From the IMG/VR virus record IMGVR_UViG_3300029476_000064: a stretch of 4,002 nt of DNA, one strand, 5' to 3'. Every line of letters starts with the position of its first letter. The first letter of the stretch is position 1. Made by a program: the position numbers and the translations under genes. The stretch comes from a virus (taxonomy: Duplodnaviria; Heunggongvirae; Uroviricota; Caudoviricetes). Of the stretch, positions 1 through 4,002 are shown one piece after another. The notes under the pieces are model-generated. The model saw nothing but the letters and a program-made list of their open reading frames with translations. It was not told the origin of the DNA and did no database searches.

Positions 1-636
1 GTTGCTGACGGGCGACTCGGAAATTTTTGGCGAAGAATCTAGGGCTGGCGCGGTCTGCATGGTGGTGGGCGACTCGGCTTTTTCGGCACCCTGAAGCATG
101 GCGTCGCGGCATCCGTCATACGCTTCTTTCATAGCATCACGCACCCATCCGACAGGTTTCTGCTCAGTCAACTCACACCATTTCTCGAATGTGGGCACAG
201 ATACCGGAACTGGCGGTGCTGCATAAAGCGCCTGACAACTCCAGCCAGACCAGTGAGCACCCTCCGCTCTCTCATCATCTTCAGGGCGAACAAGCGTGAC
301 TTCGCTCGGGTGTTTCCTGTGTGACCACAGCCAGGCTACGGTTTCGGCATTGGCTGGCTCTGGCGGGGCGGAGTAAAAATACTCATCCTCAATCCCATCA
401 ACGGGCTTTGAGAAGCCGATAAAATCACCATAATGCCAAGGATAGGGGCCGTATGGCTCAGAGGTCACACGACGCCACCGGTGAATGGCAGGCTCCGCTT
501 CGAGCGATGCCAGCGCGATACGCAGTGCCGCCAGCGTGTTGCTGTCGCCTTCGTCCAGACCGAACGGGATTTCATCTCTGGCTGCTTCCATGTCGGCAAT
601 TTTCTGCTGCAGCCATTGTTTGGTAATAGTGCTCAT
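1..636 (-). CDS. Hypothetical phage protein, 3' end beyond window (at least 211 aa visible)
   Basis: My own translation of the minus strand is open from 636 down to position 1. ATG at 636..634 is preceded by an AAGGAGAGG Shine-Dalgarno and overlaps the upstream stop (ATGA at 636..633). N-terminus reads MSTITKQWLQQKIADMEAARDEIPFGLDEGDS. Not in the ORF track, presumably because it is incomplete. I do not recognise the family. Confidence 0.55.
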   Translation of the reverse strand, partial: MSTITKQWLQQKIADMEAARDEIPFGLDEGDSNTLAALRIALASLEAEPAIHRWRRVTSEPYGPYPWHYGDFIGFSKPVDGIEDEYFYSAPPEPANAETVAWLWSHRKHPSEVTLVRPEDDERAEGAHWSGWSCQALYAAPPVPVSVPTFEKWCELTEQKPVGWVRDAMKEAYDGCRDAMLQGAEKAESPTTMQTAPALDSSPKISESPVSN

Positions 637-902
637 GATGCCTCTCCTTTACCGGATGCGGCGGCGATCAGCTTCTGCGCCTGCTGAATGTCAGGATTGC
701 CTGCAATCATCACTTCTGGCGCGTCACAGTCACCGCCAAGGTCAAGAATGCGCTCATGTCCGGTACGCAGGCAGGATTTGTATCCTGAAACCGTCTGCTT
801 GAGCGATTCGGTCAGCACAGCAATCCTCTGGTCTTTGGCTTCCAGCTCATCCAGCAGCGCCAGCACTGTGGCTGGGTTGGCTGCGGAGTTCAGCGCGTTC
901 AA
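633..902 (-). CDS. C-terminal segment of a small hypothetical protein; 89 codons from TTG at 902, probably the downstream part of a gene interrupted by an in-frame TGA
   Basis: ORF track entry starts at a TTG with no Shine-Dalgarno upstream. It is in the same frame as the 38-codon ORF at 930..1046, separated only by a TGA at 932..930 and nine sense codons. Stop at 635..633 overlaps the next ATG. Confidence 0.4.
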   Translation of the reverse strand: MNALNSAANPATVLALLDELEAKDQRIAVLTESLKQTVSGYKSCLRTGHERILDLGGDCDAPEVMIAGNPDIQQAQKLIAAASGKGEAS

Positions 903-929
903 GGCAGTGATATCTGCATCAAGCTGAGT

Positions 930-1046
930 TCATTCTGCCAGTGAGATATCGAAAATGTCATCAGGCGGCATAACACTAAGGCGCTCATGTGCACCAACTG
1001 CTGCCTCAGCGATTTCACGTAATGCGCGTTTGTCGATGTTGCTCAT
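930..1046 (-). CDS. Small ORF, 38 aa (MSNIDKRALREIAEAAVGAHERLSVMPPDDIFDISLAE); likely N-terminal part of the interrupted gene continuing to 633
   Basis: ATG at 1046..1044 with GGAGGA about 7 nt upstream; ATGA overlap with the stop of the 76-aa ORF. Ends at TGA 932..930. Below the ORF-track length cutoff; translated by hand. Confidence 0.4.
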   Translation of the reverse strand: MSNIDKRALREIAEAAVGAHERLSVMPPDDIFDISLAE

Positions 1047-1273
1047 TCTTCATCCTCCAACTCAGATACGGCGTCCATTACATCTGAGCCGCGAATGGTT
1101 TCGAATGCCACACAAGCCATTTCAAAGCACAGGCGCTCATGCGGGTGCGGAGATTGCCAATACTTGAAGCCAGGACGATGCGAATAGCCCTGCATCGCAT
1201 AAAACTCTCCGGCCAATTCAATGGCGGCATCCACCAGTTCACGGTTTGTCATTGGTTTGTCGATGTTGCTCAT
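1043..1273 (-). CDS. Small acidic hypothetical protein, 76 aa
   Basis: ORF track. ATG at 1273..1271 with AGGAGG 7 nt upstream; ATGA overlap with the upstream stop. Begins MSNIDK and carries an acidic C-terminal tail (SELEDEE). I do not recognise the family. Confidence 0.55.
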   Translation of the reverse strand: MSNIDKPMTNRELVDAAIELAGEFYAMQGYSHRPGFKYWQSPHPHERLCFEMACVAFETIRGSDVMDAVSELEDEE

Positions 1274-1470
1274 TGGGCGGCCTCCTGGATTAACTTTTCG
1301 AGAATGGCATCAAGGGCTTTCCGTTTTCCGATATACCCGCCACCAACCCACTCTCCACGAAGCAAGGCGTAATATTTCCCGTCGTCTTCGTGATACGGTC
1401 CTCGGATAGACCAGTCGGTTGTGATGGCGTCGATAGCCTTTTTAGTTTCTGCGAAATCCATCATGCTCAT
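1270..1470 (-). CDS. Small hypothetical protein, 66 aa (MSMMDFAETKKAIDAITTDW...)
   Basis: Internal ATG of the 85-aa track ORF at 1470..1468, preceded by GGGGGAGGG and forming an ATGA overlap with the ren stop. The longer start at 1527 would overlap ren by 60 nt and is less likely. Confidence 0.5.
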   Translation of the reverse strand: MSMMDFAETKKAIDAITTDWSIRGPYHEDDGKYYALLRGEWVGGGYIGKRKALDAILEKLIQEAAQ

Positions 1471-1760
1471 ACCCCTACCCTCCCCCAAACCATCAACACC
1501 CGCTTCATCGCGGCACTCTGGCGACACTCCTTAAAAATCAGGTTAGTGCTCACCTTTCCTTCCCGTTCTTCCCTGGTAGCGAATCTGTAATACACCGTTC
1601 GCCAGACCTTACCATCAATGACCAAGATTCCTGCCCGCGCCATTTTAGCCGCAGCCTGATTTATGCTGGTTACTGTTGCGCCTGTTACCGCGGCAACGTC
1701 CTGCGCACAGAAGCTCTTATGCGTCCCCAGGTAATAAATAATTGCCTCTTTGCCCGTCAT
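1467..1760 (-). CDS. ren: Ren protein (Rex-exclusion resistance), lambda-like
   Basis: The 97-aa translation (MTGKEAIIYYLGTHKSFCAQDVAAVTGATVTSINQAAAKMARAG...) closely matches lambda Ren as I recall it. Position directly after P with an ATGA overlap, as in lambda. AAGGAG Shine-Dalgarno upstream. Confidence 0.85.
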   Translation of the reverse strand: MTGKEAIIYYLGTHKSFCAQDVAAVTGATVTSINQAAAKMARAGILVIDGKVWRTVYYRFATREEREGKVSTNLIFKECRQSAAMKRVLMVWGRVGV

Positions 1761-2448
1761 ACACTTGCTCCTTTCAGTCCGAACTTAGCTTTGATTTCTG
1801 CGATCTTCGCCAAAGCCTGTGCACGATTTAAAGGTCTACCGCCCATGACAGGAAGTTGTTTTACTGGTTCAGGTATCGCCTCACCACGGTTAATTCGCGC
1901 GGTCATACAGGTCAGCTCATCGGCAGCTTTACGCCGTAATTCCGCGTCAGTCAGCGCATTGGCCCGCATGTTCTGGTACAGGTTGGTAACCAACCAGTAG
2001 TGCGCGTTTGATTTCCATGGATAAGACTCTGCGTCCGGATACAGGCCACGCTTCCGGCAATACTCGTAAACCATATCAACCAGCTCGCTGACGTTTGGCA
2101 GTCCGGNNNNNNNNNNNNNNNNNNNNNNNNNNNNNNNNNNNNNNNNNNNNNNNNNNNNNNNNNNNNNNNNNNNNNNNNNNNNNNNNNNNNNNNNNNNNNT
2201 TCCATCGTGGTGATCCCGTTTTCCCGAAAAGCCAGAACCCACTGGCGACGGATTTCGTTCACTTCGTTCTGGTCACGGTTAGCCAGGCTCGCCGGGAAAG
2301 TTGCCAGTAACTGGCTGAACACACCGTTGATGATCTGCGCTACCTGCTGTACCTGCGGCTTTTCGTCGTACTGTTCCGGCATGTTGTTGGCGATCCGACG
2401 CATCTGCTCACGGTCAAAGTTAACCATCTGTGCGGCGATGTTTTTCAT
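1757..2448 (-). CDS. P: Replication protein P (DnaB helicase loader), lambda-like; coding sequence interrupted by an N run at 2107..2199
   Basis: N-terminal track ORF (MKNIAAQMVNFDREQMRRIANNMPEQYDEKPQVQQVAQIING...ITTME) and C-terminal track ORF (GLPNVSELVDMVYEYCRKRGLYPDAESYPWKSNAHYWLV...GLKGASV) both match lambda P as recalled. The two track ORFs are in different frames because of the N run. ATG at 2448..2446 overlaps the O stop. Confidence 0.85.
2107..2199. other. Run of 93 N (gap or masked sequence) inside the P gene
   Basis: Seen directly in the sequence. The flanking P reading frames are out of phase across it, so 93 is probably not the true length. Confidence 0.95.
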
Positions 2449-3374
2449 AGATCCACCCCGTAAATCCAGTCTGTGTTTGTCAGGTCGAGTTTTGGTTTGC
2501 TGGCTGTCACGCCTGCCTGTTGCTTGTTACGGTTGATTTCGAGTTGGGTCCACTTATCGCGGAGTTTGGCCGGACTTAGCACGTTACCGGACCAGAAGTT
2601 GTCCTGGCATGCCCAGCGGAACAGCACGCACATGTCGCGGTGGTTACGTCCGTCACGTTCACGCATCAGGCGGATATCGTTAGCCCACCCTGCAAAATTC
2701 GGTTTTCTGGCTGATGGCGCGATGGTCTTCACCATGTCAAACATCCACTCTGCGGCGGTCAGGTCTTCTGCTGTCCCCCACCTGCTGCCGCTCTGAATTG
2801 CAACATCTGGTTTCTCCACAGGAAGATCGTTTTCTGGTTGGTCAGAGGATTCGCCAGAATTCTCGGACGAAAAAGGTTTTATATTGTCTTTTGTTAGTTT
2901 GTCTTTTGTGTTTACCTGATTCGGGTAAACGCCTTTACCTGATTTGGGTAAACTTTTCTTACCTGATTCAGGTAAATTTACCTCTTTCAGGTAAACTTTA
3001 TTTTTCTTACCTGATTCGGGTAATGTTGACCATTCACTGACCACATTATTAATGCCGATATTCCGCCCGCTCTGAATAAAAATCCCACGCTTTACCAGAA
3101 CACTTTTTGCAGCAGAACACTTGTGCGGCAATATCCCGGTCAACTCGGAAAGTTGCTCGTTGCTCACCCAATCCAGTTTTTTATTAAAGCCATATGTTTT
3201 GCGCATGACAGCCAGGAAGACCAGAAGCTGGTGCTGTGTTAATCCGGCCAGCATCACAGCTTCCAGCAACTCATTTGCAATGCGCGTATAACCATCATCG
3301 AGATCTGCCACATTACGCTCCTGTTTGGCAAAGTTACCTCTGCAGAAGTTGAGTATTTTTGCTGTATTTGTCAT
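2445..3374 (-). CDS. O: Replication initiator protein O, lambda-like C-terminal domain with a divergent N-terminal iteron-binding domain
   Basis: The 309-aa track ORF has a first ~27 aa and a C-terminal ~125 aa (SRWGTAEDLTAAEWMFDMVKTIAPSARKPNFAGWANDIRLMRERDGRNHRDMCVLFRWACQDNFW...TNTDWIYGVDL) that match lambda O as recalled. The middle differs. AGGAG Shine-Dalgarno upstream; origin iterons lie inside the gene. Confidence 0.9.
   Translation of the reverse strand: MTNTAKILNFCRGNFAKQERNVADLDDGYTRIANELLEAVMLAGLTQHQLLVFLAVMRKTYGFNKKLDWVSNEQLSELTGILPHKCSAAKSVLVKRGIFIQSGRNIGINNVVSEWSTLPESGKKNKVYLKEVNLPESGKKSLPKSGKGVYPNQVNTKDKLTKDNIKPFSSENSGESSDQPENDLPVEKPDVAIQSGSRWGTAEDLTAAEWMFDMVKTIAPSARKPNFAGWANDIRLMRERDGRNHRDMCVLFRWACQDNFWSGNVLSPAKLRDKWTQLEINRNKQQAGVTASKPKLDLTNTDWIYGVDL
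2875..2911. other. AT-rich region next to the iterons (candidate DNA-unwinding element of the origin)
   Basis: The stretch GGTTTTATATTGTCTTTTGTTAGTTTGTCTTTTGTGTTT is strongly AT-rich and lies immediately promoter-distal to the iterons, as in lambda ori. Confidence 0.5.
2912..3023. repeat. Replication origin iterons: five copies of a 17-bp dyad-symmetric repeat TTACC-N7-GGTAA inside the O gene
   Basis: Copies at 2912-2928, 2935-2951, 2959-2975, 2978-2994 (variant TTACCTCTTTCAGGTAA) and 3007-3023. They sit in the O linker region, the same place lambda carries ori, but the repeat sequence differs from the lambda iteron. Confidence 0.8.
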
Positions 3375-3377
3375 AAT
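3349..3377 (+). promoter_or_regulatory. pO-like promoter for oop RNA (-35 TTGAGT, 17-bp spacer, -10 CATAAT)
   Basis: TTGAGT at 3349-3354 and CATAAT at 3372-3377 on the plus strand. The flanking sequence is near-identical to the lambda pO/oop region as I recall it. Confidence 0.6.
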
Positions 3378-3384
3378 GACTCCT

Positions 3385-3462
3385 GTGGATTGATCCAGTA
3401 ATGACCTCAGAATTCCATCTGGATTTGTTCAGAACGCTCGGTTGCCGCCGGGCGTTTTTTAT
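3385..3462 (+). ncRNA. oop: oop antisense RNA, about 77 nt, overlapping the 3' end of cII on the opposite strand
   Basis: Sequence GTGGATTGATCCAGTAATGACCTCAGAATTCCATCTGGATTTGTTCAGAACGCTCGGTTGCCGCCGGGCGTTTTTTATT is near-identical to lambda oop as recalled. It has an internal ATCCAG/CTGGAT stem and ends at an intrinsic terminator. Confidence 0.7.
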
Positions 3463-3703
3463 TGGTGAGTCCATCAAGCGCATACTTAAAAGCCCTGCTA
3501 ATCGGACTGATGTCTGATGCCATTCCGAAAGCACACAAGACCGAAGCAATAAATCTCCAGTCCGTTCTGCTTATCTTCGATTCATGACAGCCAATCATCT
3601 TTGCCAGACCGCGCTGGGTAATAGCTGACAGATTGATAAGTAAATCTGTTTCTGCGCGATCAACGTCACGCTGTGATAGTTTGCTGTAACTTGTTCTTTC
3701 CAT
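3407..3703 (-). CDS. cII: Transcriptional activator CII; C-terminus identical to lambda CII, N-terminal part divergent
   Basis: The 98-aa track ORF ends ...LTNKKRPAATERSEQIQMEF, which matches the lambda CII C-terminus as recalled. The N-terminal region has the SKISR helix-turn-helix-like motif but differs from lambda. Position between the cro-like gene and O, with the 3' end overlapped by oop. Confidence 0.85.
   Translation of the reverse strand: MERTSYSKLSQRDVDRAETDLLINLSAITQRGLAKMIGCHESKISRTDWRFIASVLCAFGMASDISPISRAFKYALDGLTNKKRPAATERSEQIQMEF
3436..3460 (+). terminator. Intrinsic terminator of oop (lambda tO-like)
   Basis: Stem GCTCGG (3436-3441) pairs with CCGGGC (3448-3453) with one G-U, loop TTGCCG, followed by a T6 run at 3455-3460. 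Confidence 0.75.
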
Positions 3704-3844: not shown

Positions 3845-4002
3845 TTAAGCGGCTTTGTGTTCCGGCGGGAACACGTCATCAAGACTGACTTTTGCGCCTA
3901 ACTTGTTTAGGCACGCAACAAGAGCACGGCATGTTTTAAGGTCTGGGAAGCGACGACCAGATTCCCAATGTCCGATAGCTCCCTGTGTGCATCCAACTGC
4001 CT
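3845..4002 (-). CDS. Cro-like HTH (XRE-family) regulator, 5' end beyond window; 51 C-terminal codons visible
   Basis: My own minus-strand translation from 4000 gives AVGCTQGAIGHWESGRRFPDLKTCRALVACLNKLGAKVSLDDVFPPEHKAA, ending at TAA 3847..3845. The pattern matches the recognition helix and following helix of XRE-type HTH proteins. Same strand as, and immediately upstream of, cII, which is the cro position. Confidence 0.55.
   Translation of the reverse strand, partial: AVGCTQGAIGHWESGRRFPDLKTCRALVACLNKLGAKVSLDDVFPPEHKAA

Follow-up and report, generated by a model that had tools for sequence, protein, structure and literature searches.

The span 2875-3023 of the window (the whole 4,002-nucleotide stretch of viral DNA analysed here, IMG/VR record IMGVR_UViG_3300029476_000064) is very probably the replication origin of a lambdoid prophage or phage, built like ori-lambda, with its own type of O and compatible with a lambda-type P. 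It is an ordinary and very common lambdoid origin of a specificity class other than that of lambda. The evidence comprises the anatomy of the region, its homology, its register with the annotated lambda iterons, the covariation of the dyads, the mosaic boundaries, the matching P gene, the prevalence of the origin and its identity with coliphage origins. From these features, by analogy with studied origins, we infer binding by O, unwinding, recruitment of P and a separate specificity of the window origin.

Gene context of the origin

On the minus strand of the window, ORF calls together with Pfam and PHROG matches identify part of a lambdoid early operon, from cII through O and P to ren (Table 1). 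The reading frames of cII, O and both readable parts of P are intact over their full length. The PF04492 match on O spans the full profile, assigning a Phage_rep_O N-terminal DNA-binding domain to the protein. The P gene is broken by a run of 93 N, and PHROG 109 (P-like helicase loader) matches both readable halves, with E values of 1e-29 and 4e-40. A nearly identical contig, L016, has an intact P of 233 aa that matches Pfam Phage_lambda_P, and relatives that are 100% identical carry 10 more bases across the mask. The helicase-loader gene directly 3' of O, together with the lambda-type C-terminal domain of O, is the arrangement of a lambda-type (O/P) origin. Records of the exact O protein come solely from JGI/IMG and ENA metagenome data.

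Table 1 Features of the window, in the order of transcription of the minus strand. Iterons are numbered in the sense of O.
Feature	Position	Strand	Remarks
cro-like HTH gene, 3' part	3845-4000	-	First in transcription order
cII	3407-3703	-	Just upstream of O, same operon; Pfam Phage_CII, E=7e-34
O, replication initiator, 309 aa	2445-3374	-	ORF; Pfam Phage_rep_O (PF04492), aa 22-115, E=1e-33
Left mosaic junction	3289-3311		23 nt common to window, lambda and 4A7; encodes VADLDDGY; switch from lambda-type to 4A7-type
Putative origin-binding N-terminal domain of O (~aa 22-115)	3030-3311	-	Non-lambda; holds LPHKCS, aa 82-87
Iteron 1, TTACCCGAATCAGGTAA	3007-3023		First in O sense; read as LPESGK; extra copy compared with lambda, 29 bp upstream of iteron 2
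Iteron 2, TTACCTGAAAGAGGTAA	2978-2994		Register of lambda iteron 1; read as (V)YLKEVN, second frame
Iteron 3, TTACCTGAATCAGGTAA	2959-2975		Perfect 8-1-8 palindrome; register of lambda iteron 2; read as LPESGK
Iteron 4, TTACCCAAATCAGGTAA	2935-2951		Register of lambda iteron 3; read as LPKSGK
Iteron 5, TTACCCGAATCAGGTAA	2912-2928		Register of lambda iteron 4; read as (V)YPNQVN
AT-rich stretch, presumed DNA-unwinding element	2865-2911		Adjoins iteron 5
Box ACACAAAAGACA (O sense)	2900-2911		Opens the AT-rich stretch
15-nt direct repeats	2879-2893 and 2894-2908		Two copies, within the AT-rich stretch
Right edge of the non-lambda cassette	2855-2872		From sliding identity and exact runs
P, lambda-type helicase loader	1757-2448	-	Overlaps the O stop codon; PHROG 109
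Run of 93 N	2107-2199		Interrupts P
Ren-like gene	1467-1760	-	After P
Several small ORFs, one Ead/Ea22-like			After the Ren-like gene in transcription order

Five iterons inside the O coding sequence

The motif TTACC-N7-GGTAA has five exact matches at 2912-3023 and none elsewhere in the window. Its chance expectation is a mean of 0.03, and 0 of 200 dinucleotide-preserving shuffles reached five matches. The repeat finder returned a single family, made of five 20-nt copies that are 85-100% alike. An earlier note on this DNA had described the entire span 2875-3023 as an iteron origin. The five exact dyads are indeed there, and the first 37 bases (2875-2911) belong to the AT-rich stretch and not to the iterons. 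The same note had called the iterons dyad-symmetric, which agrees with the 6-8 of 8 possible dyad pairs that each copy forms.

The array is located inside the O coding sequence, between the parts coding for the two domains, and contains at least four dyads phased at ~20-24 bp. In the sense of O, the start-to-start spacings are 29, 19, 24, and 23. Iteron 1 sits in a 30-nt (10-aa) insertion relative to lambda O in the alignment. In the Klebsiella relatives, whose origins are 85-87% identical to that of the window, the arms of iterons 2-5 are almost unchanged and the central positions vary, and iteron 1 is less conserved, with one arm reading GGTAC and the centre changed. This upstream fifth copy appears to be auxiliary.

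In the frame of O, the array reads TLPESGKK-NKVYLKEVN-LPESGKK-SLPKSGK-GVYPNQVN. The linker peptides that the earlier note had quoted (LPESGK, LPKSGK, and YLKEVN) are all present in O, with the refinement that two reading frames are involved, one shared by iterons 1, 3, and 4 and the other used by iterons 2 and 5. With LPESGK or LPKSGK encoded by three of the five copies, the repeats could be imagined to reflect peptide units of the O linker, without any DNA function and with a dyad symmetry that is incidental. However, the two other copies give VYLKEVN and VYPNQVN in a different frame, and three of the four spacings (29, 19, and 23) cannot be divided by three. The copies are also palindromic, a property that a repeated peptide would not call for, and they share columns with the iterons that the lambda and 434 records annotate as sites of O binding. 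In other classes, moreover, both arms change symmetrically while the linker peptides are quite different. We reject the peptide explanation, which we regard as extremely improbable, because the copies are read in two frames; for the same reason, it is as DNA that the repeat is kept, with the peptide repeat as a by-product. Since the iterons lie in the linker-coding part of O, it would be the DNA requirement that dictates the repeated linker peptides and not the reverse. As a separate observation, Rfam gave one sub-threshold match on the repeats, to the Listeria RNA rliD (16 bits against a gathering score of 50, E=0.25), which we attribute to chance.

Directly after the last iteron, the DNA becomes AT-rich, and the GC content reaches its minimum of 22.5% at 2870-2909. 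The boundaries of this stretch, its box and its direct repeats are listed in Table 1.

Comparison across ten O-type origins

Ten origins were aligned in the initiator sense: those of the window, KO-TP1, HK544, lambda, P22, phi80, HK140, mEp043, epsilon34, and SEN34. The last four iterons of the window share alignment columns with the four annotated iterons of lambda and with the repeats of the other phages. The spacing is 20/24/23 in lambda, P22, HK544, and mEp043 and 19/24/23 in the window. The last iteron is directly followed by ACACAAAAGACA and then by a second ACAAAAGA motif, inside an AT-rich stretch, in nine of the ten origins; phi80, which departs somewhat, is the only one with a diverged ACACAAAAGACA box. 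At the level of the aligned sequences, the ten origins thus share one scaffold, namely four dyads spaced about 20/24/23 and then the ACACAAAAGACA box (diverged in phi80).

On this scaffold, the arms of the iterons differ between classes (Table 2). The earlier note had stated that the iterons are not those of lambda, and this holds, as lambda iterons are annotated as TCCCT-N7-AGGGA in J02459. It had also named phi80 and the HK-series phages for comparison; among the three of these in the alignment, HK140 has lambda-type iterons, HK544 has TTAGC arms, and phi80 has its own repeats. Between classes, both arms always change together, which is what binding by a symmetric dimer predicts.

Table 2 Iteron arms in the aligned origins.
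Arms	Origins	Register or spacing
TTACC/GGTAA	Window, Klebsiella phages	Common 17-bp register
TTTAC/GTAAA	P22	Common 17-bp register
TTAGC/GCTAA	HK544, SEN34	Common 17-bp register
TCCCT/AGGGA	lambda, HK140, epsilon34	Common 17-bp register
GTCAC/GTGAC	mEp043	Common 17-bp register
TTCCCG/CGGGAA (16-mers)	phi80	21-bp spacing

We computed the identities of the initiators separately for the N-terminal domain (aa 20-115) and the C-terminal domain (aa 190-285). The window and lambda are 51% identical in the N-terminal domain and 98% identical in the C-terminal domain. The corresponding values are 99% and 20% for epsilon34 and lambda, 85% and 26% for the window and KO-TP1, and 45% and 84% for SEN34 and lambda. 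The C-terminal domain of the window O is therefore lambda-like, as the earlier note had claimed from the sequence, and a lambda-type P follows it. The N- and C-terminal identities are uncoupled, and the iteron arms track the N-terminal domain in all ten modules and never the C-terminal domain. Because the arms follow the N-terminal domain, the window origin most likely has an O-ori specificity of its own and works with a lambda-type P. This covariation across the ten modules lends support to the earlier prediction of an origin specificity distinct from that of lambda.

The coupling between arms and N-terminal domain in the ten modules agrees with the type-specificity rule for lambda, phi80, 82, and P22. 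P22 also obeys this rule, the N-terminal half of its initiator being type-specific for ori. For hybrids of lambda, phi80, and 82, the passage of PMC6022878 that cites Furth and Yates (1978) describes the N-terminal half of O as type-specific for ori and the C-terminal half as specific for P.

Likeness to named systems

In lambda (J02459), the iterons are annotated at 39034-39118 inside O, in the linker-coding part, and the array of the window is equally placed. The two origins have in common 17-18-bp dyads in the same columns, the ACACAAAAGACA box, an AT-rich stretch, cII upstream, and a P gene that overlaps O. They differ in the iterons, which are TCCCT-N7-AGGGA in four copies in lambda and TTACC/GGTAA in five copies in the window; the window has neither the arms nor the N-terminal domain of the lambda specificity class. 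Its AT-rich stretch is also nearer to the P22/HK544 form (ACAAAAGACAATA) than to that of lambda. In the comparison that included phage 21, the N-terminal domain of this phage is 57.4% identical to that of the window, and the figure for lambda is equal.

Additional iterons are known from the Stx phages 933W and P27, which have lambda-type origins with six iterons, the extra copies adding residues to O (PMC7466680); in P27, the extra iterons are weakly bound and still required (PMC7466680). The Stx phage origins retain lambda-class iterons and a lambda-like N-terminal domain, whereas the window origin is of a different class and has one extra copy.

Like the window, the phages 4A7, Lambda_4C10, 1W, 3W, Perceval, Turner, and those of the PhiR series combine this origin with a lambda-type C-terminal domain and a lambda-type P. 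The O of the 4A7 group begins with MANTAEIFNFPVPD and has a different cII-like gene upstream, while the O of the window starts with the lambda-type MTNTAKILNFCRGNF and follows a lambda-type cII 3' end. The Klebsiella phages KO-TP1, GZ7, and ST11-VIM1phi8.2 have the same iteron class in five copies, with a degenerate upstream extra iteron; their origins are 85-87% identical and their N-terminal domains 85% identical to those of the window. Their C-terminal domain, in contrast, is unrelated to that of the window (26%), and two of the three phages carry a downstream gene with the annotation of a DnaC-type or AAA loader. The N-terminal domain and iteron class of the window is therefore found with a lambda-type P here and with DnaC-type or AAA loaders in GZ7 and ST11-VIM1phi8.2.

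P22 gene 18 and the HK97/HK544-type origins share the scaffold with the window, having four dyads at 20/24/23 followed by ACAAAAGACAAT repeats. The initiators of P22 and HK544 type have a Phage_rep_O-type N-terminal domain, as in the window, but they carry a C-terminal domain of a different type, which goes with a DnaB-type helicase gene, whereas that of the window is lambda-type. The window does not fall into the P22 gene 18 class, as its arms are shifted by one base on each side and its C-terminal domain is 16% identical to that of P22.

Closeness to P22 raises the question of whether the specificity of the window origin is independent at all, since the window O might also recognise the P22-type TTTAC-N7-GTAAA, or P22 gp18 the window iterons. 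The N-terminal domain of gp18 is the closest of any other class (64% identical to that of the window), and TTACC and GGTAA occur within the P22 iterons as well, with a shift of one base on either side. Some cross-recognition may occur, given that the arms of P22 differ by this one-base shift only. Nevertheless, when placed in the common 17-bp register, the P22 half-sites lie nearer to each other by 2 bp, and the two proteins differ at aa 82-87 (LPHKCS in the window, APTKCS in P22). We consider a lack of independent specificity rather unlikely, and we retain the reading in which the origin has a specificity of its own.

A candidate specificity motif at aa 82-87 of O

When the six iteron classes are compared in register, a short stretch of O stands out as a candidate specificity motif. 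At aa 82-87, the residues covary with the arms: LPHKCS in the window (TTACC), HHTH(V/C) with TTAGC, PVKRCN with TCCCT, and PRQKVN with GTCAC. The Klebsiella phages have LPHK(CS), like the window. The comparison of SEN34 and HK544 separates this motif from the rest of the domain. The N-terminal domain of SEN34 is closest overall to that of P22 (68% identity) and is 43% identical to that of HK544; despite this low value, SEN34 and HK544 have TTAGC arms in common and HHTH in common at aa 82-85. We infer that aa 82-87 of O may set the arm specificity and that this position is probably the start of a recognition helix. Searched with the O protein and with a profile of ten sequences, the PDB yielded no solved structure of an O relative, and the single-sequence AlphaFold model of O was unusable (mean pLDDT 40).

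Mosaic structure of O and its junctions

The O gene is a mosaic, with codons 1-29 of lambda type, codons 30 to ~168 of non-lambda (4A7) type, and codons 169-309 again of lambda type. From 3469 down to 3289, the window is identical or nearly identical to lambda, across the cII 3' end, the oop region, and O codons 1-29. Exact runs place the left junction: the window equals lambda over 3324-3289 and equals 4A7 over 3311-2855. The latter run, of 457 nt, spans the N-terminal domain, the five iterons and the AT-rich stretch. Downward from ~2864, the window is again 92-100% identical to lambda and resembles lambda and 4A7 alike. The non-lambda cassette therefore comprises ~424 bp (3288-2865), with lambda-like sequence on both flanks. 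Since the cassette differs from that of lambda and its flanks are lambda-like, the origin would be expected to be served only by its own type of O and to be compatible with a lambda-type P.

The left junction, which joins a lambda-type O start to a 4A7-type N-terminal domain, is rare. It is missing from 50,697 phage records, where the best match to the N-terminal part is 89.7%; none of the complete E. coli genomes reaches a coverage of 80% over 3180-3480; and a 62-mer across the junction is absent from three contig collections (genome, viral, and metagenome). A single ENA MEGAHIT contig, k119_62410, has the junction; over 1803 nt, this contig and the window differ by 1 base. As the same junction stands in this contig, a natural recombinant is likelier than an assembly artefact.

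These features bear on a reading in which the origin is unused in this copy, the window being part of a defective prophage or an assembly chimera. The source is a short metagenome-type contig, its exact left junction occurs only in the window and in the one ENA contig, and its P is interrupted by the masked run. However, the intact reading frames of cII, O, and both parts of P argue against a defective element. The recurrence of the junction in the MEGAHIT contig argues against a chimera, which a shared stretch of 23 nt would be unlikely to cause. Furthermore, the junction is 266 bp from the iterons and does not touch them, and the origin cassette is 100% identical to those of sequenced coliphages. 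We regard this reading as quite improbable.

Proposed mechanism of initiation

On the model of lambda, dimers of O would bind the five 17-bp dyads through the N-terminal domain (~aa 20-115) to form an O-some, which would destabilise the adjoining AT-rich stretch. The lambda-type C-terminal domain of O (aa 169-309) would then recruit the P-DnaB complex, made with the downstream lambda-type P, after which host chaperones would free the helicase. Transcription from pR through the region may activate the origin, as in the lambda model.

Prevalence and relation to phage 82

To describe the prevalence of the origin, we used a 181-bp query (2860-3040). The query is 100% identical in Turner, Lambda_4C10, 4A7, 1W, 3W, Perceval, PhiR5_1, and PhiR47_2 and 98.9-99.4% identical in six further phages; about 15 sequenced coliphages carry the origin. 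It is 85-87% identical in six Klebsiella phages. At a query coverage of at least 80%, it is found in 2413 of 5426 complete E. coli genomes (~44%), and 1704 records match it with an identity of at least 99%. In E. coli, the class of the window is the commonest one with a lambda-type C-terminal domain.

This abundance is one of the points suggesting that the window origin is the classical origin of phage 82 and hence already described, a reading that we hold to be a real possibility without favouring it. The origin of phage 82 reportedly has five repeats, which also counts for the identification. In genetic work of the 1970s, phage 82 was reportedly found to have an O with its own ori specificity that works with lambda P. 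Its origin, ori82, is said to have been sequenced in 1979-1981, by Grosschedl and Hobom in 1979 and by Moore, Denniston and Blattner in 1981. The architecture fits as well: in the passage of PMC6022878 that draws on Furth and Yates (1978), phage 82 has a non-lambda N-terminal half with its iterons and a lambda-type C-terminal half that recombines with lambda. Against this, the phage 82 replication region was not among the matches in the phage collection, and literature text searches returned nothing on ori82. In addition, SEN34, with TTAGC arms, is another case of a non-lambda N-terminal type joined to a lambda-type C-terminal domain, and phage 82 could be of the SEN34 type instead. If the phage 82 reading is true, the finding is already known.

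We tentatively put forward a different possibility, at about the same level of confidence, in which the TTACC-N7-GGTAA cassette is not of the phage 82 type and represents an O/ori class that has never been characterised experimentally, although it is more common in E. coli prophages than any other class. The motif at aa 82-87 would then track the arms independently of the rest of the domain, and natural chimeras would let the specificity determinant be deduced from sequence alone. If this is true, there would be a small set of mutually orthogonal initiator-origin pairs on one scaffold. Origins with one scaffold and different arms could give orthogonal replicons for laboratory plasmids. For phage biology the gain is small, as the window adds one more case in which an N-terminal half and its iterons move as a cassette and the C-terminal half matches the helicase loader.

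The annotation of these elements may benefit more directly. A full-text search of the open-access literature with six iteron strings gave no match, and the records examined name the gene O or "replication protein" and leave the iterons unannotated. The array and its adjoining AT-rich stretch locate the replication origin of a very common family of E. coli prophages.

A probable cassette swap in O and a mosaic junction in or beside the masked part of gene P

At positions 3289-3311 of the window, the lambda-type start of O, together with the cII 3′ end and the oop region, is joined to a 4A7-type N-terminal domain (the type of coliphage 4A7). This join is rare. None of the 5426 complete E. coli genomes covered the span 3180-3480 to at least 80%, and the join itself was found neither in 50,697 phage records nor in three contig collections. 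We detected it in one ENA MEGAHIT contig, k119_62410 (locus L016, 2415-4217), whose sequence agrees with that of the window at all but 1 of 1803 bases. On its upstream side the join borders a block shared at 100% identity with an E. coli ATCC 11775 prophage, whose O is lambda-type; the block on the downstream side has a 100% match in E. coli SF-468. The join is probably a natural cassette swap; an assembly chimera is less likely.

Gene P contains a run of 93 N at 2107-2199, which replaces 103 real bases. Relatives with 100% identity have 3321 bases over a stretch that includes this run and measures 3311 in the window, and k119_62410 has 103 bases at the same place. As 93 N stand for 103 bases, the frameshift in P is only apparent, caused by the mask and not by damage to the gene. 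The window and k119_62410 are identical as far as the N run and just 93% alike past it (window 1500-2106 versus L016 4321-4927). The genes past P also differ, being ren and ninB in k119_62410 and small ORFs with an Ead/Ea22-like gene in the window. This loss of identity and the change in gene content place a second mosaic junction inside or beside the masked part of P.

Genes and RNA around the replication module

Lambda carries the nin genes after ren, whereas the window has four ORFs at that place, past its Ren-like gene, with weak PHROG matches to families of unknown function only.

Features on either side of the O-P segment
Feature	Position	Strand	Note
ORF, 85 aa	within 1-1527	-	past Ren-like gene
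ORF, 76 aa	within 1-1527	-	PHROG 4132, unknown function
ORF, 89 aa	within 1-1527	-	Ead/Ea22-like
ORF, 212 aa, open-ended	within 1-1527	-	past Ren-like gene
lambda oop RNA counterpart	about 3374-3460	+	antisense to cII 3′ end

The oop region is nearly identical to that of lambda and contains a GC-rich hairpin and a T run at about 3440-3461. In the annotated 434 record, oop lies at the equivalent position; a search of Rfam gave no matching family for the counterpart.

The 4A7-type O is annotated as a protein of either 339 or 309 aa (phage 4A7, locus L002, 2501-3520; cluster members P0001, P0007, P0010 and P0013). The longer version has a 30-aa extension that overlaps the upstream gene, and the shorter one begins with MANTAEIF. 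Of the two starts, the one that gives 309 aa agrees better with the alignment to lambda O.

Origin arrays and the right edge of the cassette

In SEN34, the first iteron position resembles the first iteron of P22 (TAACGGATTC...; SEN34, L014 850-940 versus P22, L009 801-887), and the remaining three have TTAGC arms, as in HK544. This composition suggests recombination within an origin array.

The AT-rich stretch contains two tandem 14-15-nt copies of a ACAAAAGACAAT-like sequence (window 2879-2908; P22, L009 888-915; locus L006 899-928), which are conserved across origin classes with unrelated iterons. In the window, the non-lambda cassette has its right edge just beyond these copies, at about 2855-2872.
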